Positions 1,991 through 33,163 of a DNA stretch of 64,000 nt are shown one piece after another; within the stretch, counting starts at the first letter, position 1, and the number at the start of each line of letters is the position of its first letter. The notes under the pieces are model-generated. The model was not told the DNA's origin and did no database searches. It saw only the letters and a list, made by a program, of their open reading frames with translations. A program made the position numbers and the translations under genes. This DNA is from an uncultured Gammaproteobacteria bacterium (GTDB lineage: Bacteria; Patescibacteriota; Microgenomatia; Levybacterales; GWA1-39-11): assembly GCA_964452165.1 (NCBI GenBank), contig CAYVKP010000001.1:490729-554728 (forward strand). The letters run 5' to 3'.

Positions 1991-2798
1991 CTTGAATGTT
2001 TACTTAATCTTGGCGGATGAAAATCTATTTCACCCGCACTATCTATCTGGTCTTATCAGGTTATTTGCCAATAAGAAAATAAAAATCGTAGGTATTACTA
2101 TTGCCCAAGATTCATTTAGGCGTGGGCTTATTCACGCCGTCTTACAGCAATATATCCTTTGGGGGACTTTTGCTTTTGTATTTATTGTTTTAAATTCTCT
2201 GATCAGATCTTTTCTATCCAGGCTCGGAATTTCCGACAATACAATAACTGGAATTTCAAGAAAGCATAAGATACCTCTTTTTGTCACCAAAAGTGTAAAT
2301 AGTGGGGATCATCTTGGTTATCTCTCATCTTTGGCAGTAGATATTATTATTTCGTCTAATGGCCAAATTTTCAAAAAAGAATTACTCGATCTTCCCAAAA
2401 TTGCCTGTATCAATAGGCATTCTGCGCTTCTTCCTAAGTACGGCGGTGTTCTCCCTGTTTTTTGGGCAATGAAAAACAATGAGGAGATGATAGGTGTAAG
2501 TGCTCACTATATGGTCGAGAAAATTGATCAGGGAAGCATCTTGGCATCTGCAAGCTTTAAGAATGATAAAGAAAACTCTCTATTCTATAATTACGTGTTG
2601 GCATTTGATATCAGCGCAGATGTTACCGTTGTCGCAATCGATAATGCTTTAAAGGGAAAGATAGTTAAGAAATTTAAACATAACAAGGACGAATACTACT
2701 CATTCCCGAAAGAAAGAGACATGGAAGATTTTAAAAAAATTAACAAAACATTCTCGTTGGGAGATGTCGTTAAATATTACAAGATGTACGCTAATTAA
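1971..2798 (+). CDS. Formyltransferase-family protein (Fmt/ArnA-N-terminal-like; probable sugar N-formyltransferase)
   Basis: INRHSALLPKYGG matches the HxSLLPxxRG catalytic motif of N10-formyl-THF-dependent formyltransferases. Size (275 aa) and location in a glycan locus fit sugar N-formyltransferases. Confidence 0.6.
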   Translation: MKKRGNNLNVYLILADENLFHPHYLSGLIRLFANKKIKIVGITIAQDSFRRGLIHAVLQQYILWGTFAFVFIVLNSLIRSFLSRLGISDNTITGISRKHKIPLFVTKSVNSGDHLGYLSSLAVDIIISSNGQIFKKELLDLPKIACINRHSALLPKYGGVLPVFWAMKNNEEMIGVSAHYMVEKIDQGSILASASFKNDKENSLFYNYVLAFDISADVTVVAIDNALKGKIVKKFKHNKDEYYSFPKERDMEDFKKINKTFSLGDVVKYYKMYAN

Positions 2799-2843
2799 CT
2801 AGCGTGTTGATTTTTTCCCTTAATTCCTTATAATTTTATAAAC

Positions 2844-3845
2844 GTGAATAAGACCTTAAATAAAGAAAGTAAATCAGAAAGAACTGCACTCGTATGTGGA
2901 GCAGGGGGATTTATCGGTAGTCATTTGGTCAAAAGACTGAAGAAAGAAGGTTACTGGGTCCGAGGAGTTGACGTTAAAAAGCCTGAGTACGGCAAAACAG
3001 ATGCTGACGAATTTATAGTAGGAGATCTAAGAGATCCTGAATTCTGCAAAAAAATTCTCAATATTCCATTTGACGAGGTTTATCAATTAGCCGCAGATAT
3101 GGGTGGGGCAGGATACATATTTACGGGTGAACACGACGCGGATGTAATGCACAATTCCGCACAGATTAATTTAAACATGATGCATTTTGGACAAAAAACG
3201 GGAATAAAAAAAATATTTTTCTCCTCTTCGGCATGTATTTATCCAGCGCACAACCAGACGGATCCGAACAACCCTAACTGCGCGGAGGAATCAGCGTATC
3301 CCGCGGCTCCTGACAGTGAATATGGGTGGGAAAAATTGTTTAGTGAGCGAATGTACCTTGCTTATAATCGTAATTACGGAATGGAAGTGAGAATCGCCAG
3401 GTTCCATAATATATTTGGTCCTGAAGGCTCTTGGAATAACGGAAAAGAAAAATCGCCCGCTGCCATATGCCGAAAAATTGCCGAAGCTTCAAATGGCGGA
3501 ACGATAGAAATTTGGGGAGATGGAAAACAGACACGTTCCTACCTATATATAGATGAGTGCCTTGAGGGGGTACGGAGATTAATGGAGTCTGATTTCATGG
3601 GCCCTGTCAACATTGGCTCAAGCGAGATGATTAGCATAAATGCACTTGCGCAGATGGTTATGAAGATTGCCGGCAAGAACGTGAAAATAAAACACGTAGA
3701 CGGTCCCCTTGGAGTTCGTGGGCGGACATCTGACAACTCTTTAATTGAGGAAAAACTTAAATGGAGACCGAAAGCGCCGCTACAGGATGGTATGGAAAAG
3801 ACATATTCTTGGATCTTGAAGCAAGTAGAAAAATCTCGTAAATAA
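2844..3845 (+). CDS. NAD-dependent epimerase, GDP-mannose 3,5-epimerase (GME)-like
   Basis: The GAGGFIGSHL Rossmann motif is present. A long stretch, SSSACIYP...AYPAAPDSEYGWEKLFSERMYLAYNRNYGMEVRIARFHNIFGPEGSWNNGKEKSPAAICRK...IEIWGDGKQTRSYLYIDECLEGVRRLMESDF, is near-colinear with plant GDP-mannose 3,5-epimerase from memory. Confidence 0.6.
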   Translation: MNKTLNKESKSERTALVCGAGGFIGSHLVKRLKKEGYWVRGVDVKKPEYGKTDADEFIVGDLRDPEFCKKILNIPFDEVYQLAADMGGAGYIFTGEHDADVMHNSAQINLNMMHFGQKTGIKKIFFSSSACIYPAHNQTDPNNPNCAEESAYPAAPDSEYGWEKLFSERMYLAYNRNYGMEVRIARFHNIFGPEGSWNNGKEKSPAAICRKIAEASNGGTIEIWGDGKQTRSYLYIDECLEGVRRLMESDFMGPVNIGSSEMISINALAQMVMKIAGKNVKIKHVDGPLGVRGRTSDNSLIEEKLKWRPKAPLQDGMEKTYSWILKQVEKSRK

Positions 3846-3846
3846 A

Positions 3847-4671
3847 ATGACAAAAAACTTAGTAATAGGTTCAGAGGGTTTTATTGGGAAGCCATTTTGC
3901 CAATTTCTTGAAGGAAAAGGTGAAAGCGTAATCCATTTCGACGTCAAAAGAGATCCGAAAGAAGACGGCAGAACCAGCAAATTCAATTTTGAAGACATTG
4001 ATAAAATTTACTTTCTTGCATGGGATGTGGGTGGATCAAAATACCTTTATGAAAAAAAGCTTCAACTGTCTCAGCTCAAGTGGAATTTAGATCTGATGAG
4101 AAATATTTTCGATTCAATAGAAAAGCAGAAAAAAGACTTTCTCTTTATCTCAAGCCAATTGGCGGAAGAGTGTGACACGGTTTATGGAGTCACGAAAAGG
4201 CTAGGTGAAGTTTGGACAAACGAGCTTGGGGGAGTCTGCATAAGAGTGTGGAATGCATATGGGGTGATGGAGCCAATGGATATTAAGAGCCATGTTATCT
4301 CAGATTTCATATATCAGGCATTGACAACAGGTAAAATTAAAATGCTAACCAATGGAGAAGAATGGAGGCAGTTTACTCATATCCGAGACTTGTCTCGCGC
4401 ATTTCACACGGCACTAAACTCCAGAAACATACGCAGAACCGTATACGATGCCAGCAGCTATGAATGGGTCAGGATTATCGATATTGCAAAAATAATTTGC
4501 GATATAACGGGGACAGAGCTTTACCCCGGAAAAAATAAAGGTCATGATCCGATGCCGTCATTAAATATGGGAAGAGTTCCGGACTGGCTGCCCGAAGTTT
4601 CATTAAAGGAAGGCATTCGGGAGATGGTAGAGCAAGCAAGGGAAAATCTGAAGAATGGCAAAAAACGATAA
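3847..4671 (+). CDS. NAD(P)-dependent epimerase/dehydratase (SDR family)
   Basis: N-terminal LVIGSEGFIGKPF Rossmann motif. Placement with the GME-like gene suggests a nucleotide-sugar reductase/epimerase. Confidence 0.5.
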   Translation: MTKNLVIGSEGFIGKPFCQFLEGKGESVIHFDVKRDPKEDGRTSKFNFEDIDKIYFLAWDVGGSKYLYEKKLQLSQLKWNLDLMRNIFDSIEKQKKDFLFISSQLAEECDTVYGVTKRLGEVWTNELGGVCIRVWNAYGVMEPMDIKSHVISDFIYQALTTGKIKMLTNGEEWRQFTHIRDLSRAFHTALNSRNIRRTVYDASSYEWVRIIDIAKIICDITGTELYPGKNKGHDPMPSLNMGRVPDWLPEVSLKEGIREMVEQARENLKNGKKR

Positions 4672-5905
4672 ATCCTCTCTTTTAAAAAACTCCTCCATTT
4701 TGTTCGTAACTTTCTCACGTTGGGAGAACGGCAAACGATTGCCTACCAGTGGAAGTCTCAATCCGCTCCGAGACTTCCTCCTACCTAAAATTAAGAAGCT
4801 TGTACTTGTCGACCAACCCCACCCGGGTAGCGATAGGGTTATGCCAAAAATCGAGGAATATAATGGTGATAAAGAAAATTTTAAATCCCATGAATCGTCA
4901 TGGTATGTGCGTTTGTTGAGGTCGTATCTTGAAAGTTCACGTTCTCAAAAAACCCAAATAAGGTTTAAGTTGCGAGACTTTTTATCTGTAATTGATTGGT
5001 CTTTACGTGATAAAACTAAATTCGATTACGCCGTGTGTCTTGAAAGTATTAATACGTTAGCCGCGATTTTGCTAAGAAAACTAGGACGGGTTAAAAAAGT
5101 CATTTATTACGTTTCTGATTATTCTCCCAATAGGTATCCAAGTAAGTGGTTTAACTTTGTATATCTCGCACTTGACCGATTTTGCGCTGAGCATGCCGAT
5201 TATATTTGGGATGTATCGCCTGCAATGCAAAAGGCGAGGATTTCTGCGGGACTCGATCCTGAAAAATCAGCCCCCGTCATTGATGTTCCAAATGGGCTGT
5301 TACCGGCTCAAATAAAAGCTGCTCCCATCTCAAGCATAGACAAGCACGCAATAGTATATATGGGCACTTTGGGTGCCGAGAATGGGCCTGATATTCCCAT
5401 TAAGGCTCTCTCAATAATTCTTGACAAATTTAAAGATACTAAGCTACATATCATTGGAGGAACAAATGAGGATTTTCTTTGGCTTAAAAAAATCATCACC
5501 AAAATGAAACTTGGAAAATCTATCATCCGCCACGGGTTTATTGAAGATGAGCTCGCGATGTCCAGAGTTATAAGTCATTGCGCTGTGGGACTTGCGCCCT
5601 ATAGAAATATCCCCGGTTCCATCAGGCAATATGCAGACGCAGGTAAAATCAGAGCGTACTGTGCTGCCGGTATTCCTGTCGTGACCTCCCGCGTTCCACC
5701 TCTTGGTCACGTTGTTGCCGATAAAGGCGCGGCAATAGTTGTTGATGATGACCCGGCAGCTTTTGCGCAAGCCATTATAAACATTTTCTCAAATCAAAAA
5801 TTGTATATGACATTAAGACAGAACGCTATAAAATTCGGACAGGATAATACCTGGGAAAATTCTTTTAGGAATGCATTTGCATCAATGGGGAAAGTTACAA
5901 AATGA
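4655..5905 (+). CDS. Glycosyltransferase group 1 (GT-B fold, GT4-like)
   Basis: Shows GT-B C-terminal domain features (IVYMGTLGAENG..., E..GIPVVTSRVPPLGHVV...). Confidence 0.5.
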   Translation: MAKNDKSSLLKNSSILFVTFSRWENGKRLPTSGSLNPLRDFLLPKIKKLVLVDQPHPGSDRVMPKIEEYNGDKENFKSHESSWYVRLLRSYLESSRSQKTQIRFKLRDFLSVIDWSLRDKTKFDYAVCLESINTLAAILLRKLGRVKKVIYYVSDYSPNRYPSKWFNFVYLALDRFCAEHADYIWDVSPAMQKARISAGLDPEKSAPVIDVPNGLLPAQIKAAPISSIDKHAIVYMGTLGAENGPDIPIKALSIILDKFKDTKLHIIGGTNEDFLWLKKIITKMKLGKSIIRHGFIEDELAMSRVISHCAVGLAPYRNIPGSIRQYADAGKIRAYCAAGIPVVTSRVPPLGHVVADKGAAIVVDDDPAAFAQAIINIFSNQKLYMTLRQNAIKFGQDNTWENSFRNAFASMGKVTK

Positions 5906-6783
5906 AAAAAGAAACCTTTAATTATGAGGAGGTTTTTATGGGAGTCAATCAGGATAGGTCACGAGGATTTTATAAAAAGATCTTCTCGAAAAAACCCGAG
6001 CTCCGCCGCGTAGTCGGAATGTTAAAAGTTAAAAAAGGAAGAATATTAGATGTCGGTTGTGGAGGAGGGGATATGACGGAGTGTTTTCCATTCTATTTCC
6101 CAAAAGCAAAAATTTATGGCTGCGACGTAAGCGAGACCGCAATAAAGTATGCAAAAAAGTTTGGCACGGGGAAAGTTTCATATAAGCCAATGAGAAAAAA
6201 GCTACCCTATCCTTCAAATTATTTTGATGCACTTACGTGCCTAGATGTTTTGGAGCATATACCTGACGTAAACTATTTCCTCGATGAGGTGAGAAGAGTT
6301 TTAAAACCGGGGGGACTTTTTCTGGGTGCCATACCCTGCGAAGGTCAGCCCTATACAATTAGCTGGTTGCTAGATAAGATTGGTTTTTGGGGAGACCTAA
6401 CCTTCAAACATGTCGGTCATATTCACCCTGAGTTCACTCACGATTACATTGTAAGACTTTTTACCCGAAAAGGATTTGAAATACAGGAAAAGAGGTTCTC
6501 TGAAAGAATTCCAGTACAGCTCCTTCGTTATCTTCAGTTTATGATTCCAAAAGAGATTTTGGAAATGGTGGTTGGTAAGAAAAAGGCTGTAAAATACTAT
6601 GACAGAAGCGTTTCGATTCAAAAAGAGAGCCGTAAAAAGGATGGGCTGATGTCCTTGCGAGTCTTATGGTATAGGTTACGCTCTTTGACGAAAATTATAG
6701 ATGATATAGACGCCGAGTACTTCAAGGATTCAAACTTCGCAGCCTGGAAGATCAATCTACTTGCTTCATGCAAAAATAAATAA
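5902..6783 (+). CDS. Class I SAM-dependent methyltransferase
   Basis: [11 protein letters not shown] (motif I), LDVLEHIPD and LKPGGLF (motif post-II/III). Confidence 0.65.
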
Positions 6784-6821
6784 ATCCTGTTACAATTCCC
6801 ATATTAATAGAAGATAGATTC

Positions 6822-7433
6822 ATGTCAAGAAATGCCAGGGAACTTATTAAGATTATAAATAGGAAAGGCTTCCTCGAGACTTTAGTTGAGGCGTTCAGAT
6901 TGTTTGCGCAAAAAACCACATCACTTATTAAGATTTCCATCTTAAGGTTGAGAGGGTATAATATCGATTATTCGGTTCTACTAAGGGGTAACAACAATTT
7001 TTTCCAAAGCGTAAAAAATTCCATTACTATTTCAGGAAAAGTAACTCTTGGTAGGGCCACTAGGATGACTGCGGGAGGGTCAGGGAAAGTTCACATAGGT
7101 GAAAATGTATTAGTCGACGACTCTACTTTCATAATGGCTCATGAGAAAATCGAAATAGGAAAAAATACTACGATTGCCGCTTTTTGTTTTATTACAGACT
7201 TCAATCATAGCTATAAAAACGGCAGTGTTTCGGTTCTTGAGCAGGGGTACGAAACAAAGCCGATTTCAATTGGCAAGAATGTTTGGATTGGCACACACTG
7301 TATTGTTCTCCCTGGAATAAAAATTGGCGATGGGTCAATTATAGGCGCTGGATCAGTTGTTACTCACGATGTGCCCGAAAACTCCATTGCAGTTGGAAAC
7401 CCTGCAAGAATCGTCAAGAAGATTAAAAGATGA
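6822..7433 (+). CDS. Hexapeptide-repeat (LbH) acetyltransferase, sugar O-acetyltransferase-like
   Basis: C-terminal [46 protein letters not shown] shows typical left-handed beta-helix hexapeptide repeats. Confidence 0.65.
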
Positions 7434-9703
7434 AAAGATTAAATAGTCGAGGAAAAGTTCACGTTTCTAAAATTGTCCACTTTATTAATATCGCAAACAT
7501 TTTTGTTGTAGGGTTGCTGATATTATTGCCCTTTTTTTTGTTTGATGGAAGACTATTTCTTGGGGGAGATGATACCAGGTTTTACATGGTCTACCCGAGG
7601 GAAATACTTAACAGCTTCACTCTCTATTCCTGGAATAATATTTCCTCTTTGCCTTATTACATACCAAATCATTATTGGTTGCCCTTCGTTTTTGTGGGGT
7701 CGGTGATCGACAGTATATTAAATTCCAAATTAATTCTGTCCTATTTTTCCTTTTCCGCAGTTCTTGTTTTGGGATTTATTTATTTTCAGAAATTTATTCG
7801 TCAGTTGATAGGGGAAGAGTATTCAATCGCTTTTGTGACAGGATTGATTTATCTTCTTTCTCCAATAACTCTCGTCAGTCTATCTTTCTTCCTGGCCCCT
7901 GTTTGGCTAATCGCATTGGTTCCTATTGTTGCGTATTACTACATATGTTACTTGAGGTGGGGAAAAATCGTTGACATTATAAAAGTTGTAGCATGGTCAA
8001 TTTTACTATCCTTTGTATTTTTTTCTATACCTTGGATATTAGGTCTACTTTTACCTTTATTTTTAGGAATGATCTTTTTTTTGATTTTCGTCGAAAATCC
8101 CTTCAAGAGTTTACTTAAGAGATCTCTTATTTTCGTTTTCTTTATTATTTCGAGTCAATTATTTTGGTTAATCCCATTTGCCGCCTCTCTAGTCTCGGGT
8201 GGACAGACTAGTTTGGGACAGAAGATCGTCTCAACGGATCTTGCGACCAGTTACAGAAATACAATCCTTAGCACTGCAACAGATAATATCGTATACCCGT
8301 TACTTACCATGTATCACAGAAGAATGGTTTTCGAATTTGGGTGGCATCTAAAAGATATATTTCTTAATTATTTCGATCACGTTTTACCTTTGAGCGCCAT
8401 TTTTCCAGTTGTTTTACTCTTGGGAATTATCAAATACAATCGAGTTTTTGAAATCGGCAAGAAAAAAATGTTTATTTTTCTTCTTGCATCTTTTATTAGT
8501 GTCCTTTATTTATGTACGGTAAATGTCGGGTTTTTGAAAAATGTATTTATACTTTTGGGTTATCTTCCGGGCTTTGCTGTTTTAAGAAACTTCACCGATA
8601 AGTTTGCTTTGGCTTTTATATTTATTTACGCCACGCTACTTTCCTTTTGTTTTTTAGCTATTAAAAAATCCTACAAGTTGTACGCCATAACATTATTAGC
8701 AACGCTTGCTGTCGTTTTGATAAATTTTGTGCCTGTTAAGAGAATGATTAGTGCCCCTTTATGGAAAACTAACAACACTTACACTACTGTTAATTTACCC
8801 AAGGAATATATATCTTTCATTAAGAAGACAAAGCTGACTATTCCAAGCACTACCAATATAATTGCATTACCTCAAAATATCACGGCATACTCAATAATCA
8901 CCGAAGATAACGGCAGAAATGCTTATGTTGGTACATCTCCGCTCAAGTTTTTTACAGGCATAAATGATCTGACCGGTACTGATTCTTATCCAAGTTTTAT
9001 ATCTCAAGAGATTCAGCGGTTGATTGTCAAAAGAGACTATAGTAATCTTCTTACTTTATTCACCCAAATCAATGCGGGGTACTTGATGGTTACCAACAAT
9101 GCACCTCGCGAAGTTAAGGATTCTTACCTTTATGACAGAGATTACTTGAAGTTCCAAGATAAGCAGCTTATAGACTCTATCGTAGAACGCGAGGTGGTCC
9201 GTAGCAGCAAGGGCAACTATGTAATCTACAAACTCAAAAACTCTTCAAGTATTATATCTTCCGGAGCAAGACTTGAATACAAGAAAATTAGCCCGGTGGA
9301 CTATGAAATTAAATTATCGAGCTTATCAGGTAATAAGGATCTGTTTTTTAAAGAGACGTACCATCGGGGTTGGAGTTTATATGTAGCTAAAAAAAATCAA
9401 AACCATGAATCTTCAGATTTTAAATTCGATTTTTTACTTCCGCTTAGTAAGCCTGTTTTTACGGCCTCACATGTTGGACAATTGCCTTATGGTAACAAGT
9501 GGGTGATCAACGGAGATGTGATAAAAAATGATTTCGCTAAAGACTATTATACGGAAAACAAGGACGGGTCAATTGATGTTAAGCTTCACTTGTATTTTGC
9601 TCCGCAATTCAATTTCTATATAGGATCCATTATGAGCTTCATATTTATGATAGTTGGTGGTTTATATTTATGGAAGCTAGACAAGAAACAAAATGAGAAA
9701 TAA
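7430..9703 (+). CDS. Polytopic membrane protein, GT-C-like glycosyltransferase candidate (paralog A1; YfhO/AftD-like architecture)
   Basis: The N-terminal half (~430 aa) has more than 10 predicted TM helices, with an [11 protein letters not shown] acidic motif after TM1 as in GT-C enzymes. A soluble C-terminal domain ends in a TM ([21 protein letters not shown]). It is paralogous to 11907..14216. Confidence 0.45.
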
Positions 9704-10718
9704 AGTAAGCAAATATTTCAATAAAATAATCTCATCAAAGACTGTCAAATGGATTGTAATTCCATGCGTGCTAGTTTTGTTGTGGATTTCGCTTTCTCTA
9801 TTTTACAGTTCGTATAGGAGTTTTACGGTTCTGCAATACGCTCACTCACAGGATAAGGATAATCATTCCCGGGGTGGGAAGCTATTAAAAGGAAAACGAC
9901 TTACGGGAGTATTTGAGGCTCGAGAAAATTATCTTGGAATAGTTGCTGTCAGATTTGGAGACGTCTCAAAGTTAGACTTTGACAAGGAGGATTTGATCCT
10001 ATTCAAGATTAAAGAACGTGGACAAGACAATTGGTTATATCAAAACATGTACAGATCTGGTTCCTTTACTTCAGGCCAGTATTTCCCTTTCGGATTCGCA
10101 GAGATCAAAAATTCTAAAGGTAAGAGGTACGAATTCGAAATTACTTCTCTTAGAGGTAACGTGGATAATTCTCTCGAGACAAAGCTGGTGAATCCGATTT
10201 ATTTGACTAAGTATAAATTTCCTAAAGATATAGCTTTCAAAAATCTCAGTTCGACCATAAGTTTCATGAGTAAAAAGTTGATAACATTCTTCACGAATAT
10301 TGATTCACTATTATCATCGACAGTATTCATATTGCCTTTAGTTTTCTATTATGTATGGATTTTACTCCCAATGAAAGTAATAAAAAACACCTATAAAACA
10401 GACGGCAAGAAAATTTTCGGAGTACTGGTTGTAATTTTGTTACTTAGCGATGTTGTTCTATACGATTTTATAAATACAGGCTTAATGCTTGGACTTCTTG
10501 GTCTTTGGTGTCTGTGTGTGTACTTGAATAAATTAAGAAGTAGCTTAACCTTTGCTCTAGCATTTTTACTCATCTGTATATCCATGTTTAGTATATACTT
10601 CGGTTTGGGAGTATCTGTCGATAAAGCATCAGCTTTTGCCTATTTATTTTTTTTGACAGGACTTTTTCAGATCGTTGGTGAATATAGACATGACAAGAAG
10701 CTTTTTACTTCAAAATAG
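9693..10718 (+). CDS. Membrane protein of unknown function (paralog B1)
   Basis: N-terminal TM, ~200-aa extracytoplasmic domain (GIVAVRFGD...LFKIKERGQDNWLYQ...FPFGFAEIKNSKGKRYEFEITSLRGN) and C-terminal 4–5 TM helices. It is paralogous to 14213..15199. Confidence 0.5.
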   Translation: MRNKVSKYFNKIISSKTVKWIVIPCVLVLLWISLSLFYSSYRSFTVLQYAHSQDKDNHSRGGKLLKGKRLTGVFEARENYLGIVAVRFGDVSKLDFDKEDLILFKIKERGQDNWLYQNMYRSGSFTSGQYFPFGFAEIKNSKGKRYEFEITSLRGNVDNSLETKLVNPIYLTKYKFPKDIAFKNLSSTISFMSKKLITFFTNIDSLLSSTVFILPLVFYYVWILLPMKVIKNTYKTDGKKIFGVLVVILLLSDVVLYDFINTGLMLGLLGLWCLCVYLNKLRSSLTFALAFLLICISMFSIYFGLGVSVDKASAFAYLFFLTGLFQIVGEYRHDKKLFTSK

Positions 10719-11703
10719 GTGACAGGATTGTACTAAAATGCTCAGCAATCTTTTTCTGACTTGCGAGCGAGGGATGTATGTCGTCTGAGAAATCTCCATT
10801 CACAAGCCAGCTGTAGGGATCTACAAAATACGCTCCATACTCATCCGAAATTTTTCTAATGATTCTGTTGTAGTTTTCAAGTTGGCCCTTGTCAATGTCT
10901 CTTCTTGGCAACGTTGATACTAGAAATATTTTTGCCCCTGAATTAAAGTGCTTAACGTCGCCAACAATCTTGTAATAATCGCGTTCAAAATTATCAAGAT
11001 TCACATTTCCTGCCGCGTCATTTGTCCCTAGAAAAATAATTATAGCATCAGACTTAAAGCTCAGCAGATCCTTTCTGTAGCGGTAAATCGCGTTGTCTAC
11101 GCCTTTCATTTGTGAGACGGTAGACTGTATTATGCTTGCATTGTGAAGTTCATATCCAATATCATCCGCTAAAATCTGACTATAGTTATCTTTTCCGTAG
11201 ACCGTTGAAATGGAATCACCCAAAACTGATAGAATCTTATTGTGGAGTCTATATTGGAATAGATGAGCGTTTCCTTCAAGATATATTCCCTTCATTCTGA
11301 TCTGGCAAGGAAAATAAAAATGACTGCACGTGTGCCTGACGGTTACTGTATGGGCTGATGTTTTATCTACCGAGATGGACAATTTTTGGCTATCAAGGTT
11401 TGGAGATGAGAGAGAGTAGCCTTTTCCATCAACGAAAATTTCAACTCCCTGATCGGATTTTGATGTAGTCTCAAACTCAAAGTCTACCTCGCGGCTTCGG
11501 GAGAACATGAAATTTAGTTCGCTTCCCGCGTATAGGCTTTCGTTGTCTTTCCAACCGACACCTCGGTTGATTAGACTACTGTCTGCAAAGTTCTTAATTC
11601 CTTGAGCAGCTGGCGTGTGGGCGTATGTCAAAAACGACACTACAAGAGTTAATGCCACAATAACCAGAAGTCTAGTGCTGCTATCTGATAACTTTTTTCT
11701 CAT
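10705..11703 (-). CDS. SGNH/GDSL-family hydrolase (secreted esterase/acylhydrolase)
   Basis: Signal/TM N-terminus, then VLGDSIS (block I), FLGTNDA (block III) and DDIHPS (block V DxxH). Confidence 0.65.
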   Translation of the reverse strand: MRKKLSDSSTRLLVIVALTLVVSFLTYAHTPAAQGIKNFADSSLINRGVGWKDNESLYAGSELNFMFSRSREVDFEFETTSKSDQGVEIFVDGKGYSLSSPNLDSQKLSISVDKTSAHTVTVRHTCSHFYFPCQIRMKGIYLEGNAHLFQYRLHNKILSVLGDSISTVYGKDNYSQILADDIGYELHNASIIQSTVSQMKGVDNAIYRYRKDLLSFKSDAIIIFLGTNDAAGNVNLDNFERDYYKIVGDVKHFNSGAKIFLVSTLPRRDIDKGQLENYNRIIRKISDEYGAYFVDPYSWLVNGDFSDDIHPSLASQKKIAEHFSTILSPILK

Positions 11704-11906
11704 GAAGCAATTTATGTAATTATACTGGTTTCAATAAACGTAGACAATATTGATCGGGTTGTATTCTGTCTCATCAGTTCGTGCTTTACAAAGAAAATTA
11801 ACATTGATATAGTTAATAAAATTTTAAATACATTACATTCATCTGCCATATAAGCTTACAGAGCTGCTCGTAATGGAAATCTTAAAACCGGAAATATTCA
11901 CCTAAG

Positions 11907-14216
11907 ATGAATTTATTAAGAAAGAACTCTTTTATAGTTATAAACATTGTTGTAGTTTTGCTCTTATTTTCTCTCCCTTATTATTTGTTTGGTGGGAAGT
12001 TATTTCTGGGAGGTGACGATACAAGACTTTTTTATATTTATCCTAAGGATTATTTAGTCAACGTCCCGTTTTTTTCTTGGACCAATTTATCTTCAATAGG
12101 TTGGAGCTTTTCATACCAAACATTTATTCCGTTCGTTTCCGTGTGGGTCATACTTTCGGAAGTTATAAGAAATAAAATTATTTTAGGATATTTCTCTTTC
12201 TCTCTACCTTTGGTTTTAGGGTTCGTTTTTTTCCAAGAGTTTACACGCGAGCTAATAATTGAGAACAAAGATAAATATAAACCGGAGATATTGGCGGGCG
12301 CTCTTTTTTATACTCTCTCCCCTATAATAATAAATAATCATTTCCTTAATCCTCTCATACCCATATGGCTAATCGGTTTGATTCCCGCACTTTGTTGTTA
12401 CTTTTTAAGATTTCTGAAAACGGGCGAGTACAAAAATGTTTTCATATCAATTATTCTTACTACTATTTTTTCATTCGGCTCTCACAATATTCCTTGGCTC
12501 GCGGGGTTTCTGATGCCACTCGTTCTTTCTCTCGTGGTGTGTTCAGTTCTATTCAGTAAACACGACGTTTACACTTTCATAAAAAGGATTGCCATTTTTT
12601 CTACAATTACTTTGGTCTCTCAGGCCTTTTGGTTATTTGGCTTCGTAATTACGTTTATAAATCCGAGTAGCAGCAACGTTGCCTCAAAGGTTGTCTCGGG
12701 AAGCTTTGTTAATGATTTTGCAAGGTCGGTTGAAGCGACATCTGTCGGGACAATTATTTATCCTCTCTTAAATCTTTACCAAAGACAAATCGCTTTCGAC
12801 TTCGGTTGGAATTTGAAGAATATTTACCAATTATTCTATGACAAAATCTATTTCTTAAATGTCATCTATATAGCAATCCTGTTTTCAGGAATTTTAAATC
12901 TTGCAAAGAATACGAGTAGGCTGGAGCGGAAAATATTCTTAATTCTTCTATCTGCGTTCATTATTGCTCTCTTCTTGTTTACAATAAATATTGGCTCGCT
13001 TTTTAATTTTTACATTTGGCTCGGACACATTCCGGGGTTTGTATTATTCAGAAATCCGTATGATAAATTTGCTCTCGGATATGGACTCATCTATTCACTT
13101 TTAATCACGTACTGCCTTATTATATTGAACCGCAAGTATAAGAAGATAAACTTCACAGGGCTTTCAATTGTCGTAGCATTTTTTGTAGTCGTCATGATCA
13201 ACGCTTTGCCTACAAGGGCAATAATCGTCTCTCCGTTATGGACCACTAAGAATATTTATAAAAACATTATTATTCCTAAAGAGTATTTTGATTTTATGAC
13301 ACAAATAAAGACTAAGATTTCACCCTCGAATAATATACTGAGTTTACCTTACGGTTTGTCGTTATACACAATCATAAAAGATCAAAGTTCAAATAACGTT
13401 TATGCCGGCGTCTCGCCCGTCGTAATGTTTAGTGGCGTAAACGATATCTCAGGATACTTATCATTTAATTACACCCCCGAAGCAACTGCGTTCGATCGCG
13501 CCATAGTGGGCAGAGACTACAACGGCATGAATAATATTCTATATACGCACAACATAAATTATGTATTTTTAACAAAAAATATACCCGAGGAAGTGAAAAA
13601 ATCCTATCTTTTCGTGCCTGAAGTTATGAAAAATCAGGATGGGGAATTTCTCTCCAAAATAACTTCAAAAAAAATCATAACAAGCACTGAGGGCAATTAC
13701 GAACTTTATGAAGCAAAAAAAAGAAACCTTCAAATCGCTTCGGATAACTCTCTTTTTAAAAGAGTAAGTAGGGTAAGATACGAGATTTTAATAAAAAATA
13801 TTAAGAGTAGGCAAGAGTTGGATTTCAATGATACCTTCCATGAGGGTTGGAAACTATATTTACAGCGTGGGGCGTTCAACTGCCAAGATCCTAAGAAAAT
13901 AACCGAACTTAAGACAGTTGAATGTCAACCTGATCCTAAAATGTTTGAGCCAAGTGACTTGACCTATCTATGGCAAAAAAGTGTTTTTGATAAGTCTCAC
14001 AGTATTAAGAATGGCTTTTCCAATAAGTGGGTGATTGACCCCGTTTTTATTAAGAGAAGCGTAGACAAAAAACTCTATACGTTGAATAAGGATGGTTCGA
14101 TTGATCTACGACTGACTTTGTACTTTGAACCTCAAGAGTATTTTTACATAGGTGGTCTGATCAGTATTTTGACTATTGGGTCACTATTTATTTTTGTTGT
14201 TTTTAGACGAAAATGA
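11907..14216 (+). CDS. Polytopic membrane protein, GT-C-like glycosyltransferase candidate (paralog A2)
   Basis: [15 protein letters not shown] after TM1. It aligns along its length with 7430..9703 (GYFSFS..LVLGF.FFQ.F.R.LI; C-terminal DGSIDLRLTLYFEPQEYFYIGG + TM). Confidence 0.45.
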   Translation: MNLLRKNSFIVINIVVVLLLFSLPYYLFGGKLFLGGDDTRLFYIYPKDYLVNVPFFSWTNLSSIGWSFSYQTFIPFVSVWVILSEVIRNKIILGYFSFSLPLVLGFVFFQEFTRELIIENKDKYKPEILAGALFYTLSPIIINNHFLNPLIPIWLIGLIPALCCYFLRFLKTGEYKNVFISIILTTIFSFGSHNIPWLAGFLMPLVLSLVVCSVLFSKHDVYTFIKRIAIFSTITLVSQAFWLFGFVITFINPSSSNVASKVVSGSFVNDFARSVEATSVGTIIYPLLNLYQRQIAFDFGWNLKNIYQLFYDKIYFLNVIYIAILFSGILNLAKNTSRLERKIFLILLSAFIIALFLFTINIGSLFNFYIWLGHIPGFVLFRNPYDKFALGYGLIYSLLITYCLIILNRKYKKINFTGLSIVVAFFVVVMINALPTRAIIVSPLWTTKNIYKNIIIPKEYFDFMTQIKTKISPSNNILSLPYGLSLYTIIKDQSSNNVYAGVSPVVMFSGVNDISGYLSFNYTPEATAFDRAIVGRDYNGMNNILYTHNINYVFLTKNIPEEVKKSYLFVPEVMKNQDGEFLSKITSKKIITSTEGNYELYEAKKRNLQIASDNSLFKRVSRVRYEILIKNIKSRQELDFNDTFHEGWKLYLQRGAFNCQDPKKITELKTVECQPDPKMFEPSDLTYLWQKSVFDKSHSIKNGFSNKWVIDPVFIKRSVDKKLYTLNKDGSIDLRLTLYFEPQEYFYIGGLISILTIGSLFIFVVFRRK

Positions 14217-15199
14217 AACTTAAAGTTCGCGCAAACATCTTGAATATAGCAAAGCTCGTAATCGTTGGTCTATTGCTGATTTTTTGGGTAGTCTCATCAC
14301 TTTTGTTTGTAAACCACCTCAGCTTTACTATCGTAACGTTTCAAACTAGAAATGACCTTCAGATAAAGAATAGTACAGTTGATGTTGATGAGAGGAACGT
14401 TTACGAAGGGCAGTTTACTTCCCGCGATAACAATTTGGGACTCATAATCCTTGAAATTGAAAAATATAAAAACCCCGCATTTGGTAAAGAAGGTATTGTT
14501 GCTTTTAAGCTCCAAGAAAAGGGTAAAAATGACTGGGGTTTTCAGAAAGAATATAGTAGCGGATTATTCGATAGCCAATCTGAGTTTGCGTTTGGTTTCC
14601 CGCCAATTCCCGATTCAAAAGGCAAAATATACCTCTTTCAGCTGTCGTTAAAGGGGGAGGCCGACAATAAGATGAAACTTGAGGCCAATAACTACATTGT
14701 AACTGGATATCAATATTCAAAGTCGGAGATACGAAAAAACAAACTTCAGGCGATTGAATTTATCTTCAATAAAACACTCGGATCATTCACGGATACAGGA
14801 TTTGTTATTAAATCGCTCAAATATCTGTTCCCTCTAGCTCTCTTTTTGATTGGGTTTTTTGGTTTGAAGAATATCCGGATTCGTTTCAAAAAAGAGCACT
14901 TAAAAATACTTTTTGTAGGGATGGTTTTATTTGAATTGTTGTTTTCAAAATATATTCGCGTAGAAGGGTTTTATGTGTTGTTGGCGCTTTGGATATTAGC
15001 AATAGCAGTTTATGAAATTAAGAGTCGTGTATCGTTTATTTTAGGCTTTTTACTTATTACTCTTTGGGCTTGTATAATTCCCTTAGGACAGAAGAGTTTG
15101 GAGAGTAATTTAAATGTATGGATCTATGCGTTATTTGTAATCGGTTTTATTCAATTATTAATTGAAGAGAGGAGCAATAATGAGAAAAAGAAGCCTTAG
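14213..15199 (+). CDS. Membrane protein of unknown function (paralog B2)
   Basis: Same architecture as 9693..10718, with matching sequence blocks (GLIILEIEKY...VAFKLQEKGKNDWGFQ...FAFGFPPIPDSKGKIYLFQLSLKGE). Confidence 0.5.
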   Translation: MKLKVRANILNIAKLVIVGLLLIFWVVSSLLFVNHLSFTIVTFQTRNDLQIKNSTVDVDERNVYEGQFTSRDNNLGLIILEIEKYKNPAFGKEGIVAFKLQEKGKNDWGFQKEYSSGLFDSQSEFAFGFPPIPDSKGKIYLFQLSLKGEADNKMKLEANNYIVTGYQYSKSEIRKNKLQAIEFIFNKTLGSFTDTGFVIKSLKYLFPLALFLIGFFGLKNIRIRFKKEHLKILFVGMVLFELLFSKYIRVEGFYVLLALWILAIAVYEIKSRVSFILGFLLITLWACIIPLGQKSLESNLNVWIYALFVIGFIQLLIEERSNNEKKKP

Positions 15200-15854
15200 A
15201 AATACCTACGGCTATGGGCTATTTTTGCAAAAACAAAACCAAGTTTTCAGGGAGGACTTGTATAAAAGGTTGGAAGTTAAAAAAACTTTCGCAAATAAAA
15301 AAATTTTAGACTTAGGCTGTGGTGACGGTATAGACTCGGTGTTTTTGTCAAAATCTGCAAAGCTTGTAATAGGAGTCGATGTGATTGCCTACAGGCAGTG
15401 GCCATCATTAACAAATAAAAGATTAAGGTTTACTAAGGCTAATTCTACAAACCTTCCTTTTAGAGATAACACCTTCGACGGAGTTTACTTGAAAGATATG
15501 TTGCATCACATTAAGAACGTAGAAAAAACCCTGGAGGAGATCAAGCGTGTGACAAAGGCCGGTGGTGACATTGTAATACTTGAAGCAAATAGATATAACC
15601 CGATCTTCTATTTTTACGCTACCAAAATTAGGGGTCACGACCATTTTTCGCAAGGAGAGTTCAAAAATTTAATCAAAAGTAAATTTCCAAAGACTCGCTT
15701 CATTCATCTGGAGGCTTACCCACCTTTTCGTTTGCCAATGATCGTCTATAAGCTTGTTCAGAAGCTTGAGAACGGAATTAACAAGATACATCTTCTTGAT
15801 CCCATTTTTTCATACAACTTGGCAAAAATAAAAAACACTAAACAAAAGACTTGA
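15162..15854 (+). CDS. Class I SAM-dependent methyltransferase
   Basis: ILDLGCGDGIDSVFL (motif I), DGVYLKDMLHHI and TKAGGDIVILE. The true start may be the internal Met at ~15180. Confidence 0.6.
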   Translation: MKRGAIMRKRSLRNTYGYGLFLQKQNQVFREDLYKRLEVKKTFANKKILDLGCGDGIDSVFLSKSAKLVIGVDVIAYRQWPSLTNKRLRFTKANSTNLPFRDNTFDGVYLKDMLHHIKNVEKTLEEIKRVTKAGGDIVILEANRYNPIFYFYATKIRGHDHFSQGEFKNLIKSKFPKTRFIHLEAYPPFRLPMIVYKLVQKLENGINKIHLLDPIFSYNLAKIKNTKQKT

Positions 15855-17700
15855 GGAGACTTGCCCGATTTTTTACCAGGTATAAAATCCAGAAGGAAAA
15901 AGTGGAAATGGAGACTATTAGACCGTAATAAAAGGGCGTGGAGGAATAAATAAATTTATAAACATGATTGCCCGGGACTGTTTCGACTTCCAAAAATCTT
16001 CCGACTAATAATTCCTGTTTTTTACCGTCCACAAACGCGTTCCAGCCGGGATATTTACTTTCAAGCAGTAATAAGTGTTTTTTACCCTCTGAATTGGCAG
16101 ATAGAGTTATCTCATTTACTGAAAAAACGGGCCTTTGAGGTTCTTTATCAATAGCTGCAAATGGCGTTGCCCCAGAATCCTTATAAAGAATGATATTCTT
16201 ATCGAATTCTCTTATTTTTTCAAGCTCCGCGTTTTCAATATTAGTTTTGCTAATGACAAATCCGGGTTTTAAGTCTACGTAAGATTTTTCTTCCCTAAAA
16301 TTATATTTTTCAGCCAAGCTTCCTTTCAGTATTAATCCATAGTTAGATTGCAGCATAAGTAGATGATGGAGATAGGCCTGGTCTTGGGGAATATCGCCTT
16401 GTGATGTGGCGTGAACGGTATAGTAGCTATTTGGGTTATTGTTTGCAATCCACACAAGTGGAGCTGTCGTCTCTTGGTTAATATTGCCGAATTCTTTTGT
16501 TGCTAAGATTTTTTGTGAGAAGGCGAATACCACAACTAGATTTAAAATCAAAACTACAATTGCAATAATCTTTCTTTTCCATGCATCAACTAACAATCCG
16601 AAAGAAAGCAGAATTATTATTCCCCAAAGCGCAAGTATTCTACTTGGAACATGGAAGTACTGCAGAGTACTGATGCTTGAAATAATGTAATAGAGCGGGT
16701 TGATAGGTGCATCGGGCGTTGAAAGCAGCAAAAATAAAATTGTTAGAACGATAAGAATTGGTATTTTTCCACTGGATTTTGTAAGTGAGGATTTGGCCAG
16801 GAAGTATAATCCCAGAATAGAAAACGGACCAATAAAAGAAAGACTTTCCCACCAACCGAATCCCGTCGATATAGCGTTTTTACTTACAATATTCAGATCG
16901 AACGGAAAAAATAAATTATATATAATGCTGAAGAAATTCAATCCCCCATTGAAAGGCTCCTTCGTTTTGGATATATAATTTTGCAGCTCTATCATCGGAA
17001 AGATTTTGATAGAGGAGAATAATAAGAAGAAGATGACGGTTAACATCAATAATAAAGAAACCTTTTTGTCCTTGAGCAGGTAATATAAAAAAATTGCAGC
17101 TGTGCCGTACAAACAATAAAGGCAATTGTATATATCGCCCGTGAAAAGAATTAATGAAAGAGTGATTGCGGCAAGTCCGGCCCACAATATTTTTCTGTCT
17201 TGAGATATTTTCACAATACAAAATAGAAACAAAGGGAGGAAGCCAAACGACACTACTTTTTCAATATGACCCGCAGCAACTCTTGACGCCAAATATGTAC
17301 CGCTTGCGTAAGTCATGGATATTAATGTAGAAACGGTTGGCGAAGTTTTATAGAGTCTTGCAAGACAAAACATTGATAAACACGCCAACAACACGGAAAA
17401 AAAATAAGTGACTTTTATGGCAGTGGAGTAATCAAAGATAAGAATAGGAATACTGATAACCGGATTGTATATTCCATACAACGGGTCGGCGATGGCAGGA
17501 ATTCCCTGATCAATATAGGGGTTCCACTGAGGAAACTTATGGTGCTTAATAACTGATTCTTTAAAGTGCAGAAGTGGTACAATGTTGCCATTGAGGTCAT
17601 TGCCGTTTATGACGGTGGGGCTTAGAATAAATTGTAATAAGACAAGCCAACTGAAGATAAAAAATAGAATAAAAACTTTAAGATTCATGAATAATTTCAA
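15838..17700 (-). CDS. Polytopic membrane protein, GT-C-like (paralog A3, minus strand)
   Basis: More than 12 predicted TM helices with an acidic motif after TM1. The C-terminal soluble domain plus terminal TM (VYKFIYSSTPFYYGLIVSISTF) resembles the tails of the A1/A2 paralogs. Confidence 0.4.
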   Translation of the reverse strand: MKLFMNLKVFILFFIFSWLVLLQFILSPTVINGNDLNGNIVPLLHFKESVIKHHKFPQWNPYIDQGIPAIADPLYGIYNPVISIPILIFDYSTAIKVTYFFSVLLACLSMFCLARLYKTSPTVSTLISMTYASGTYLASRVAAGHIEKVVSFGFLPLFLFCIVKISQDRKILWAGLAAITLSLILFTGDIYNCLYCLYGTAAIFLYYLLKDKKVSLLLMLTVIFFLLFSSIKIFPMIELQNYISKTKEPFNGGLNFFSIIYNLFFPFDLNIVSKNAISTGFGWWESLSFIGPFSILGLYFLAKSSLTKSSGKIPILIVLTILFLLLSTPDAPINPLYYIISSISTLQYFHVPSRILALWGIIILLSFGLLVDAWKRKIIAIVVLILNLVVVFAFSQKILATKEFGNINQETTAPLVWIANNNPNSYYTVHATSQGDIPQDQAYLHHLLMLQSNYGLILKGSLAEKYNFREEKSYVDLKPGFVISKTNIENAELEKIREFDKNIILYKDSGATPFAAIDKEPQRPVFSVNEITLSANSEGKKHLLLLESKYPGWNAFVDGKKQELLVGRFLEVETVPGNHVYKFIYSSTPFYYGLIVSISTFSFWILYLVKNRASLLKSFV

Positions 17701-17721
17701 TTGTATTATAGCATCAAGTAA

Positions 17722-19773
17722 ATGATAAGAAGACCTTCATTTTTATTGAATTTATTTAAAGACAGAAGCCGTTTTTTTACAGGTTTAATACTCTTCATAA
17801 TCGCATTAATATTTAGGGGGTGGTTCCACTTGTTGCCGTTATCAACGGGGGATTGGAGCTATAAGTTTCCCCAGACAATTTTAGATTTTAAATTATATCC
17901 GTATGCTTGGGGCCCAACTTTTAATAATGGCATGGGTGGTAGTACTATTTTTCTTCTTCCTCTTAACACTTTCTTTGTAGGTTCTGCGTCAATTCTATTC
18001 AGCTTTTTCCACCTGCCATGGGTTTTGATTGAGAAGTTGGTTTGGTTTTGGCCATATCTTATTATTGCCGTTTCCGGTTCATACTTTCTGTTTAGAAGAT
18101 TTGTAATAAATGATAATATGCTCGCTCTTGTTTCCTCTCTAATCTTTACCACAAACACTTATTCGCTCATGGTCACAGGAGGAGGGCAAATTGGGGTGGG
18201 AGCAGCTTATGCTCTTATTCCGTGGGTGTTTTGGGGTTTTCTCAATACCTTGGAGAGTACGCGTAAACACGGATTGATCACTAAATCTTCTATTGTCGCG
18301 GGTCTGATATTATCGCTTCAATTGGTGTTTGATTTGCGAATCGTTTACGTTACGCTCGTATCACTTTCCATATACTATTTGTTTTATGTTTTATCTTCCG
18401 GATTCTTTGAGTCGATCAAGAAAAGCATTGTGCCCTTTTTCATCGTTCCTGGCGTAATAACTTTATTCCTCCATTTTTTCTGGATACTTCCGCTCATATT
18501 GGCAGGGCAAAATCCGGTGAGCGCACTGGGCGCAGCCTACACCGGTTCTGGGATAGTAGACTTTTTGAGTTTTGCAAAACTTGAGAATACTATTTCCCTG
18601 CTTCACCCAAATTGGCCCGATAATTTGTTTGGGAAAGCCTATTTTATGAGACCCGAATTTTTAATAGTTCCTATCTTGGGGTTCGGGTCTCTGCTCTTTT
18701 CGCCAAAAAATAAGAAGGCCAGTTTGATTTTAGTTTTTTGTACTCTCTCTCTTTTGGGAGCTTTTCTTTCAAAGGGTACAAATGATCCTTTCGGTAGCAT
18801 CTATAAATTGGCTTTTGAGAAGGTTCCCGGTTTTATCATGTTCCGCGATTCAACTAAATGGTACGGTATGACGGCGTTATCTTTCTCGCTGCTCATTCCT
18901 TATTTCTTGTTTAATCTTTCGGAGGTAGTCAAAAGAAAGATAAAAAAAATAGACGTGCTTAGTATATTGGTTTTAATATTTTTAGCGCTTTGGAGTTTCA
19001 CTATAAGGCAGGCTGTCATGGGAGAAGTTAAGGGAACATTTGCACCTCAAAAATCACCTCAACAGTACGCACAATTAACAAACTTTTTGGACTCACAAAA
19101 AGAATTCTTCAGAGCACTTTGGGTTCCATCTTTTCATCAGTATACTTATATGTCGTCCAGTCATCCGGCTATTCCTGCCGGAGATTTTCTAAATGCATAT
19201 TCAGCAAAAACAATTGCCCAAAAAATCCGAAAAAGCCCGAATTTGCTTGCGGATTCGAGCATAAAGTATTTAATTGTTCCGGACGACGTTTACGGTAAGA
19301 TATTTACGGACGACAGAAAATATAGTGACAAGCTTTATCAGGAGCAGGTCAGTCTCTTAAATGGCATAAGTGGCTTAAGAAAAGTAGCCAAGTTTGACAA
19401 TATTGTTGTTTATGAAAACGCCAGTTTCAAAGACCATTTTTGGAGTCGTACTAATAACCTTAAAATAAAATATAGGTCAATCACCCCAACCATGTATCAG
19501 GTTTGGGTAGATGATGCTAAAAAAGGAGACACGCTGGTTTTTTCTGAAGCATTTGACAAGAATTGGGTAGCCGCTGTTTCAGGTGTTAATATTTCGAGCT
19601 TGAAGTACGAGAGTTCACTCAACAGCTTTGTTTTGCCAAGAGATGGGAATTTTGTTTTAACGATTGCATACAAACCGCAAAGGTTCGTTGACATAGGGTT
19701 GATTGTGAGCGCGGTAAGTCTTTTTGTAGTGTTAATGGTTTTAACCATGAATAAGTCTAAGATTAAAAAATGA
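17722..19773 (+). CDS. Polytopic membrane protein, GT-C-like (paralog A4)
   Basis: Multi-TM N-terminal half with STGDW after TM1. The C-terminal domain ends ...TIAYKPQRFVDIGLIVSAVSLFVV (TM), the same tail pattern as A1/A2. Confidence 0.4.
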   Translation: MIRRPSFLLNLFKDRSRFFTGLILFIIALIFRGWFHLLPLSTGDWSYKFPQTILDFKLYPYAWGPTFNNGMGGSTIFLLPLNTFFVGSASILFSFFHLPWVLIEKLVWFWPYLIIAVSGSYFLFRRFVINDNMLALVSSLIFTTNTYSLMVTGGGQIGVGAAYALIPWVFWGFLNTLESTRKHGLITKSSIVAGLILSLQLVFDLRIVYVTLVSLSIYYLFYVLSSGFFESIKKSIVPFFIVPGVITLFLHFFWILPLILAGQNPVSALGAAYTGSGIVDFLSFAKLENTISLLHPNWPDNLFGKAYFMRPEFLIVPILGFGSLLFSPKNKKASLILVFCTLSLLGAFLSKGTNDPFGSIYKLAFEKVPGFIMFRDSTKWYGMTALSFSLLIPYFLFNLSEVVKRKIKKIDVLSILVLIFLALWSFTIRQAVMGEVKGTFAPQKSPQQYAQLTNFLDSQKEFFRALWVPSFHQYTYMSSSHPAIPAGDFLNAYSAKTIAQKIRKSPNLLADSSIKYLIVPDDVYGKIFTDDRKYSDKLYQEQVSLLNGISGLRKVAKFDNIVVYENASFKDHFWSRTNNLKIKYRSITPTMYQVWVDDAKKGDTLVFSEAFDKNWVAAVSGVNISSLKYESSLNSFVLPRDGNFVLTIAYKPQRFVDIGLIVSAVSLFVVLMVLTMNKSKIKK

Positions 19774-19988
19774 AACCACAGGATATTTTATTTTTTATTG
19801 TAATTGCCGGACTATTGATGACTCGAAAGCCCAAGCTTCTTGTCGCCGCGGGCATTATTTGTCTTGTTTTCTCTGTTCCCTTATTTGCTTTCTGGATTTT
19901 CTTTACAGCGCAACGCTTAGTTTATTACGCTTTTGGGTTTATTTTGGTCGCCTCGGTTTCAATTCTGCTTCGAAGACCACAAAATTGA
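19770..19988 (+). CDS. Small two-TM membrane protein
   Basis: 72 aa, two hydrophobic helices, 4-nt overlap with the upstream gene. Confidence 0.3.
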   Translation: MKPQDILFFIVIAGLLMTRKPKLLVAAGIICLVFSVPLFAFWIFFTAQRLVYYAFGFILVASVSILLRRPQN

Positions 19989-20024
19989 TTTGTTCGGGAG
20001 CCTGATTATATATATAATAAGGAA

Positions 20025-26322: not shown

Positions 26323-26358
26323 ATTGATAATAAGGTTCGTATCAATTAGAATAAAATC

Positions 26359-30990: not shown

Positions 30991-30997
30991 CGCTTTT

Positions 30998-31006: not shown

Positions 31007-31012
31007 CGCTCC

Positions 31013-32071: not shown

Positions 32072-32079
32072 GTTAAAAT

Positions 32080-33162: not shown

Positions 33163-33163
33163 T

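Follow-up and report, generated by a model that had tools for sequence, protein, structure and literature searches.

A predicted GT-C-fold membrane protein and its closely coupled partner in a Patescibacteria surface-glycan cluster

Introduction

What function is served by two large membrane proteins that are each encoded in overlap with a smaller membrane protein inside a bacterial surface-glycan cluster? The question is raised by a 64,000-nucleotide stretch of a Levybacterales genome (assembly GCA_964452165.1, contig CAYVKP010000001.1, positions 490,729 to 554,728), hereafter the window, of which positions 261..35879 form one surface-glycan cluster of about 35 kb. Two modules of this cluster, A1-B1 and A2-B2, each consist of a large protein (A) and its partner (B), and a gene for an SGNH hydrolase lies between them on the opposite strand (Table 1). 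A first-pass annotation, made without database searches, described A as GT-C-like and B as a protein without recognised family, and proposed that both belong to a tandemly duplicated, obligate two-component machine for glycan or lipid transfer. The reading favoured here, at a probability of roughly 0.55, is that A is an extracytoplasmic GT-C transferase and B its acceptor-holding docking subunit.

The catalytic acidic residue of GT-C enzymes sits directly after the first transmembrane (TM) helix, on the outer side of the membrane. Bacterial GT-C enzymes are generally regarded as single chains with the carbohydrate-binding module (CBM) built in.

The large protein has a predicted GT-C fold

The AlphaFold2 model of A1, based on 39 homologues, reached a predicted local distance difference test score (pLDDT) of 86.7 and a predicted template modelling score (pTM) of 0.88. 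When it was compared with the Protein Data Bank (PDB) using Foldseek, ranks 1 to 18 were all GT-C enzymes (yeast and human STT3, AftD, PglB, ALG12) at probabilities of 0.99-1.00, with STT3 as the top match (6EZN, 1.2e-6) and AftD as the second-best fold match (3.8e-6). The membrane core of the model superposed on these solved enzymes, and A very probably has the GT-C fold on the strength of this model. As A is large, polytopic and without family match, a transporter might also be considered, and the first-pass annotation had named a non-glycosyltransferase transporter family as the outcome that would overturn its call. The major facilitator superfamily and other transporter folds, however, followed the 18 GT-C matches at probabilities below 0.13, and this alternative is effectively refuted.

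Across the A family (39 sequences), G45, G46, D47 and R50 were invariant and D48 was at least 90% conserved, in a GGDDxR loop directly after TM1 (residues 14-38 of the A1 model). The five Lys/Arg residues of the N-terminal tail place this loop on the outer side, which gives A a conserved acidic residue in its first extracytoplasmic loop. A second conserved motif, PGFxxFRNFxDKF (380-392), was located at the outer end of helix 388-414, and an extracytoplasmic domain (440-725) is followed by a C-terminal TM helix.

Sequence searches placed A less directly. Scans of A1 and A2 against Pfam and NCBIfam gave nothing beyond weak noise at E<=1, and PDB sequence searches with A, both with single sequences and with a profile, gave no match; when the A alignment was run as a profile against a word-indexed protein database, at least two distant proteins were added. 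The sole recurrent weak Pfam signal of the family, and one of its points of likeness to AftD, was PF11847 (GT-C_AftD, formerly DUF3367), with sub-threshold matches in 15 of the 39 relatives (best E-value 2e-4) in a constant register, A residues ~103-250 aligning to profile positions ~79-218. By sequence, A is placed as a putative remote AftD-like GT-C enzyme outside the Pfam family. The GT-C call of the first-pass annotation was upheld in this way, and of the Pfam models that it had named, AftD/DUF3367 found this weak echo while YfhO (PF09586) matched none of the 39 members at E<=1.

The rank of STT3 and PglB among the best fold matches also raises an alternative in which A is an en-bloc transferase, polymerase or ligase (oligosaccharyltransferase/PglB-like or Wzy/WaaL-like), moving a polyprenyl-diphosphate oligosaccharide started by the Bac_transf enzyme of the cluster onto a protein or wall acceptor. 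Such an initiating phosphoglycosyltransferase is indeed encoded, and neither Wzy, WaaL nor an ABC exporter was recognised among the cluster open reading frames (ORFs) scanned. Nevertheless, the STT3 Pfam model matched 0 of the 39 A members, no WW or WWD (and no WWD(YG) motif) occurs in A1 or A2, the weak sequence signal favours AftD over STT3, and at least four such proteins per cluster fit decorating enzymes better than a single ligase, which makes the en-bloc alternative unlikely.

The partner is coupled to the large protein across Patescibacteria

A scan of species-representative genomes returned 45 loci (designated by L numbers), nearly all from Patescibacteria: Levybacteria, Gottesmanbacteria and other Microgenomates, with a few Saccharimonadia, Moranbacteria and Berkelbacteria. 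In all 35 full-length pairs, from about 33 genomes, the B ORF overlapped the stop codon of A or started no more than 9 nt from it. The most distant B homologues (24% identity) directly followed a 724-749-aa protein without Pfam family. The neighbour-joining tree of A was largely congruent with that of the B encoded next to it, with a distance correlation of r=0.73 and a single exception, and the two proteins are fused in some genomes (see below). The obligate pairing proposed by the first-pass annotation, and the adjacency that it suggested checking in related genomes of the candidate phyla radiation (CPR), were both supported. We are confident, if a shade less so than for the fold, that A and B are functional partners; incidental adjacency is effectively refuted by the 35 pairs and the fusions.

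The exception to tree congruence was L005 (9989..13362), where A falls in the module-2 clade and its neighbouring B clusters with those of module 1 (nearest to L006), a mismatch that could stem from a partner swap by recombination. Two loci from Saccharimonadia (L031, 9932..13711) and Moranbacteria (L034, 9926..13678) encode A-type proteins of ~1250 aa with a ~430-aa insertion in the extracytoplasmic domain; the sole B-related product encoded nearby is a protein with the C-terminal TM bundle.

The partner combines a CBM-like beta-sandwich with a TM bundle

The AlphaFold2 model of B1 (pLDDT 88.5) comprised an N-terminal TM helix, a beta-sandwich at residues 46-175 and five more TM helices, and the positive-inside pattern of Lys/Arg residues indicated that both termini are inside and the sandwich outside. 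This agrees with the earlier description of a TM helix, an exported domain and a C-terminal bundle, except that the exported domain measures ~135 aa instead of ~200 and that the bundle has five helices. The absence of a recognised family also held: Pfam yielded no family for any of 33 B members, NCBIfam no match for B1 or B2, and the family profile no match among PDB sequences. An exhaustive HMMER search nevertheless retrieved, from 1.84 billion representatives (public data clustered at 50% identity), 2001 B-family proteins at E<=1e-3, equivalent to about 2000 clusters, and 687 at E<=1e-30, most of them 310-375 aa long. Judged from these profile searches, B appears to be a large family missed by the domain libraries.

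Foldseek matches of B1 covered the sandwich alone and included CBM6 (2CDO/2CDP), CBM36, CBM35 and CBM15, a laminin LF domain and phage receptor-binding domains, at E-values of 1e-5 to 1e-3 and TMt of about 0.5, the CBMs lying between 1e-4 and 1e-3. The B ectodomain has the jelly-roll beta-sandwich fold of CBMs, and no CBM Pfam family matched any of the 33 members. In addition, two proteins without an assigned locus (P0174 and P0201; 1241-1307 aa) carry two tandem B-type sandwiches followed by ~700 residues that matched neither the window proteins nor Pfam.

The bundle also occurs alone, as a 106-109-aa protein (L038, L045, L049) of the size of GtrA or ArnE. It might be taken to suggest that B delivers the lipid-linked donor, its TM bundle flipping the polyprenyl-phosphate sugar or handing it to A in the manner of a GtrA, ArnE/F or MATE flippase. 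No flippase was recognised among the ORFs scanned in 261-35879, and a three-component logic is common for GT-C enzymes (PMC11127046). On the other side, models of GtrA, SMR (ArnE/F), EamA and MATE matched 0 of the 33 B members at E<=1, conservation within B is lowest in the TM bundle, and fusions of B to another protein of the cluster, C, drop the bundle and keep the sandwich. Donor delivery by B is accordingly regarded as very unlikely.

Fusions extend the working unit beyond two components

Fusions of B to A, with B at the N-terminus (1002-1084 aa), were found in four independent assemblies (L037, L038, L045, and L043, where the contig ends and the copy is incomplete). Fusions to C, of ~900 aa and retaining only the TM helix and sandwich of B, occurred in L004/L024 (1e-116) and L025 (6e-143). 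In L012, an A1-type gene is followed directly by one for a single 1336-aa chain (also designated P0140) that joins B to D, a remote paralogue of A, and to the SGNH domain. In P0212, finally, B is fused to a methyltransferase that is 47% identical (2e-70) to the one encoded at 15162..15854 of the window. The predicted topology of B, with both termini inside, is compatible with every fusion seen.

Unfused genes show a similar association, as A, B and D are contiguous in seven loci (L013, L014, L016, L017, L021, L026, L027) and D usually follows B directly. D itself showed a weak PF11847 match (0.031) and was otherwise without a Pfam or NCBIfam family, as was C. Since B is fused to A, C, D, SGNH and methyltransferase proteins, the working unit corresponds to the block 7430..19773; the earlier two-component proposal stands for the pairing of A with B and falls short on the size of the unit.

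These five different partners, one of them a cytoplasmic methyltransferase at the C-terminus, would also suit a B that acts mainly as a scaffold or hub for A, C, D, SGNH and methyltransferase, with its ectodomain as a protein-protein interface. Many genomes, moreover, encode one B per two or three large membrane proteins (A-B-D), and Gly, Phe and Pro account for most of the invariant positions in B, as is usual where residues form the core of a fold or an interface. Yet the sandwich matches true CBMs best, and acceptor-binding CBMs on GT-C enzymes are an established pattern. A mainly scaffolding B seems unlikely, and the two roles are compatible.

Proposed mechanism

In the favoured reading, A would reside in the cytoplasmic membrane, its GGDDxR loop and PGFxxFRNFxDK motif both facing outwards. 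Its donor would most likely be a sugar linked to polyprenyl phosphate, and its acceptor a glycan of the cell surface that the enzymes of the surrounding 35-kb cluster build. The five-helix bundle of B would dock beside TM1 of A, and its CBM-like sandwich would hold or present the acceptor glycan outside the membrane, acting in trans where EmbC, AftD and GT136 enzymes have a CBM of their own. Module 1 (A1-B1) travels with the SGNH enzyme, and module 2 (A2-B2) with the methyltransferase, C and D. For the specific role of B in holding the acceptor, the odds are put somewhat below even.

Several observations weigh against this proposal. The TM-scores of A to its 18 GT-C matches are low (about 0.33-0.48), the PF11847 threshold of 26 bits was missed (best 16.1 bits among the ten members listed), and A1 and A2 themselves had no PF11847 match at E<=1. 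The sandwich of B is a generic jelly-roll that phage receptor-binding and toxin domains match too, its invariant residues could form a protein-protein interface instead of a sugar site, and the methyltransferase fusion suggests that B acts as a scaffold, for which glycan binding is not required. Lastly, no polyprenyl-phosphate sugar synthase or flippase was assignable in the cluster.

On a wider and rather doubtful view, B might represent a widespread and hitherto undescribed class of bacterial GT-C accessory subunit, a universal module for docking and acceptor presentation with a separable N-terminal half (TM helix and sandwich) and C-terminal half (TM bundle). Around it, several different glycosyltransferases acting outside the cytoplasm might be assembled with an SGNH acyl-esterase and a methyltransferase on the cytoplasmic side, to form a single multi-enzyme machine for glycan decoration in Patescibacteria, a bacterial counterpart of the multi-subunit eukaryotic oligosaccharyltransferase (OST).

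The two modules are ancient paralogues

All five ORFs (A1, B1, the SGNH gene, A2, B2) were found exactly where the first-pass annotation had placed them, and the peptides it had listed as shared within both pairs (including GKRYEFEITSLRGN / GKIYLFQLSLKGE) are present in the sequence. A1 and A2 aligned end to end with 35% identity (765 columns, E=2e-162), and B1 and B2 with 28% identity (316 columns, E=1e-38), which supports paralogy along the full length at identities lower than the ~40% first estimated. The overlaps between large and small gene, given as 4–11 nt, measured 11 nt for A1/B1 and 4 nt (ATGA) for A2/B2. Identity in the extracytoplasmic domain of A (36%) was similar to that in its TM core (34%), and the beta-sandwich, the best-conserved part of B, was more similar (32%) than the TM bundle (25%). 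As the soluble domains are at least as conserved as the TM segments in both proteins, the paralogy is not an artefact of hydrophobic segments, a possibility that had been raised as grounds for refutation.

Table 1. Coordinates of the two modules and the adjoining features in the window.
Feature	Coordinates	Strand	Description
O-acetyltransferase	6822..7433	+	Hexapeptide-repeat sugar O-acetyltransferase, WbbJ-like; PF00132 7.6e-16; NCBIfam WbbJ 9e-34, below cutoff
A1	7430..9703	+	757 aa; predicted GT-C-fold membrane glycosyltransferase of undescribed family
B1	9693..10718	+	341-aa partner membrane protein
SGNH	10705..11703	-	332 aa; SGNH/GDSL esterase or acyltransferase; PF13472 1.6e-20, 74.7 bits vs cutoff 32.9
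Intergenic region	11704..11906		203 bp, divergent; 30% GC; one sigma-70-like match per strand
A2	11907..14216	+	769-aa A1 paralogue; clade widespread, usually as A-B-D
B2	14213..15199	+	328-aa B1 paralogue
Methyltransferase	15162..15854	+	Class I, S-adenosylmethionine-dependent; PF08241 7.5e-19; overlaps B2 end
C	15838..17700	-	620-aa polytopic membrane protein; no family match
D	17722..19773	+	683 aa; remote A paralogue (hhalign 97.4%, E=1e-11, A residues 360-743)

The local tandem duplication assumed at first was not borne out. No DNA-level repeat was found between the two copies, and A1 and A2, like B1 and B2, fall into different clades of old origin, with orthologues of either copy present elsewhere; a recent duplication was rejected on these two grounds. 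The full eight-gene layout, A1-B1-SGNH(-)-A2-B2-methyltransferase-C(-)-D, recurs in L007, L009 and L010, the A1-B1-SGNH part alone in L006 and L011, and most genomes possess only the A2-type A-B-D arrangement. By their phylogenetic placement, the two modules are ancient paralogues kept together. Divergence in substrate specificity, another part of the original proposal, was not demonstrated, as all invariant residues are retained in both copies and two conservative positions (Y295F and Y520F) are the sole clade-specific differences.

A distant lineage (L037, L038, L043, L045) has its own doubled layout, consisting of A', B::A'', the C-terminal half of B, and D. Its orthologues are 34-55% identical between genomes, and the two copies within one genome 30-33%.

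The SGNH gene and the surrounding glycan cluster

The minus-strand SGNH call proved correct, as the translation contains the catalytic blocks LGDSIS (GDS), GTNDA (GxND) and DDIHPS (DxxH) in addition to the Pfam match. The protein, predicted to be extracytoplasmic, has an N-terminal TM anchor and a ~120-aa region (~30-150) ahead of the SGNH domain. Orthologues with matching location and orientation are present in L006, L007, L009, L010 and L011, and the gene accompanies the A1-B1 type in seven of eight informative loci. Rather than a mere separator of two copies, as first described, it is a conserved companion of A1-B1 that has once been fused to B and D. The adjacent divergent region has the length given earlier, 203 bp, and is at most mildly AT-rich (30% GC vs 35.5% regionally). 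Each of its two sigma-70-like matches fits 10 of 12 positions (minus strand, 11747->11719; plus strand, 11785->11813) by consensus match alone.

The cluster encodes GT1, GT2 and GT4 glycosyltransferases, epimerases, dehydratases, a formyltransferase, a deacetylase, acetyl- and methyltransferases, a PMT_2 GT-C enzyme, a nucleotidyltransferase, a Bac_transf initiating transferase and a DUF4012 protein. The O-acetyltransferase gene overlaps the start of A1 by 4 nt and lies in the same position upstream of an A1-type gene in L001. At 261..4671, genes for a GT2 enzyme, a polysaccharide deacetylase, a formyltransferase (best match ArnA N-domain at 8e-19, short of the cutoff) and two epimerase/dehydratases could make up an Arn-like pathway that yields a formylated, lipid-carried amino sugar. 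The GT2 enzyme (261..1112) had no ArnC/GtrB-level match and no ArnD-level match was found, which reduced the Arn reading to a hint.

Downstream, a 1082-aa protein (23074..26322) without Pfam or NCBIfam match follows A-B-D in at least nine related loci (35-66% identity); like C, it has no detectable relation to A or D. The cluster closes at 33164..35879 with the Bac_transf initiating phosphoglycosyltransferase (212 aa) and the 668-aa DUF4012 protein. Beyond it, a type I restriction-modification system (HsdR, HsdM, HsdS; 36454..42459) contains a gene with a Shedu SduA C-terminal domain between hsdM and hsdS (40169..41323; PF14082 2.8e-11). Many metagenome-assembled genomes with this Patescibacteria-type cluster (L007-L011, L015, L018 and others, on contigs of 0.4-0.8 Mb) are titled 'uncultured Gammaproteobacteria', which is probably placeholder taxonomy.

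Comparison with known systems

Enzymes of the YfhO/GtrC type decorate surface polymers from polyprenyl-phosphate sugars. They act in teichoic-acid and O-antigen glycosylation (the former in Gram-positive bacteria) and resemble A in their large size, GT-C nature and extracytoplasmic domain, to which YfhO adds a C-terminal TM helix; their partners, however, are a GT2 enzyme and a GtrA-type flippase rather than a B-like protein. Ost3/Ost6 (TUSC3/MagT1) are accessory subunits of OST whose ectodomain captures the acceptor and whose C-terminal TM bundle docks on the GT-C subunit. B has the same order of parts, with its ectodomain ahead of the C-terminal bundle, a resemblance by analogy alone. The ectodomain of Ost3/Ost6 is a thioredoxin fold that binds polypeptide, in contrast to the CBM-like sandwich of B, and no sequence or fold match between them was detected among the best 50 Foldseek matches.

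A further close comparison is AftD, the mycobacterial arabinofuranosyltransferase D (PF11847; PDB 6W98). AftD contains residue D41 after TM1, which has been mutated, beta-sandwich modules in its ectodomain and a TM13-16 bundle (bioRxiv 10.1101/2019.12.22.885152). It shares with A1 a GT-C core and an Asp directly after TM1 (D41 in AftD, D47/D48 in A1), and with the A family a large ectodomain with beta-sandwich modules, after which the chain re-enters the membrane by a TM helix. Its separate four-helix bundle also has a parallel, as A together with B likewise adds an extra TM bundle. A is nevertheless half the size (757 vs about 1400 aa), and the CBM-like module and the extra bundle are carried here by a separate protein which, when fused, is N-terminal and not C-terminal. 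No link to acyl carrier protein is known for A, and its hosts are Patescibacteria instead of Actinobacteria.

In EmbC, AftD and GT136, binding of the acceptor polysaccharide is the task of the CBM (PMC11127046; bioRxiv 10.1101/2019.12.22.885152). EmbC (PMC3044687) and the GT136 enzyme ORF12 of three-component systems (PMC11127046) resemble the present system as extracytoplasmic GT-C enzymes with a beta-sandwich CBM acting on the acceptor, encoded in surface-glycan clusters. In those enzymes the CBM is their own C-terminal domain; here it would be a separate, translationally coupled protein with six TM helices, and several unrelated large membrane proteins share this protein or are fused to it.

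The literature searched contained no description of this A-B system, and a search for GT-C enzymes in Patescibacteria returned none. What appears to be new, as predicted from the sequences and models, is a GT-C enzyme whose CBM has been split off and resides on a membrane subunit of its own, one that is widely conserved and promiscuous in its fusions.

Significance for the Patescibacteria cell envelope

Very little is known about the cell envelope of Patescibacteria (CPR), although it is the interface by which these episymbionts attach to their hosts. The present results indicate that a large share of their surface-glycan clusters would be built around GT-C-fold enzymes that domain libraries miss. 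A separately encoded, translationally coupled subunit made of a CBM and a TM bundle, which elsewhere is fused to three kinds of large membrane protein as well as to SGNH and methyltransferase domains, would, if true, constitute a new organisational principle for these enzymes. The B family would also give a handle for annotating thousands of 'hypothetical' genes, and the A-B complex offers a target for structural work.

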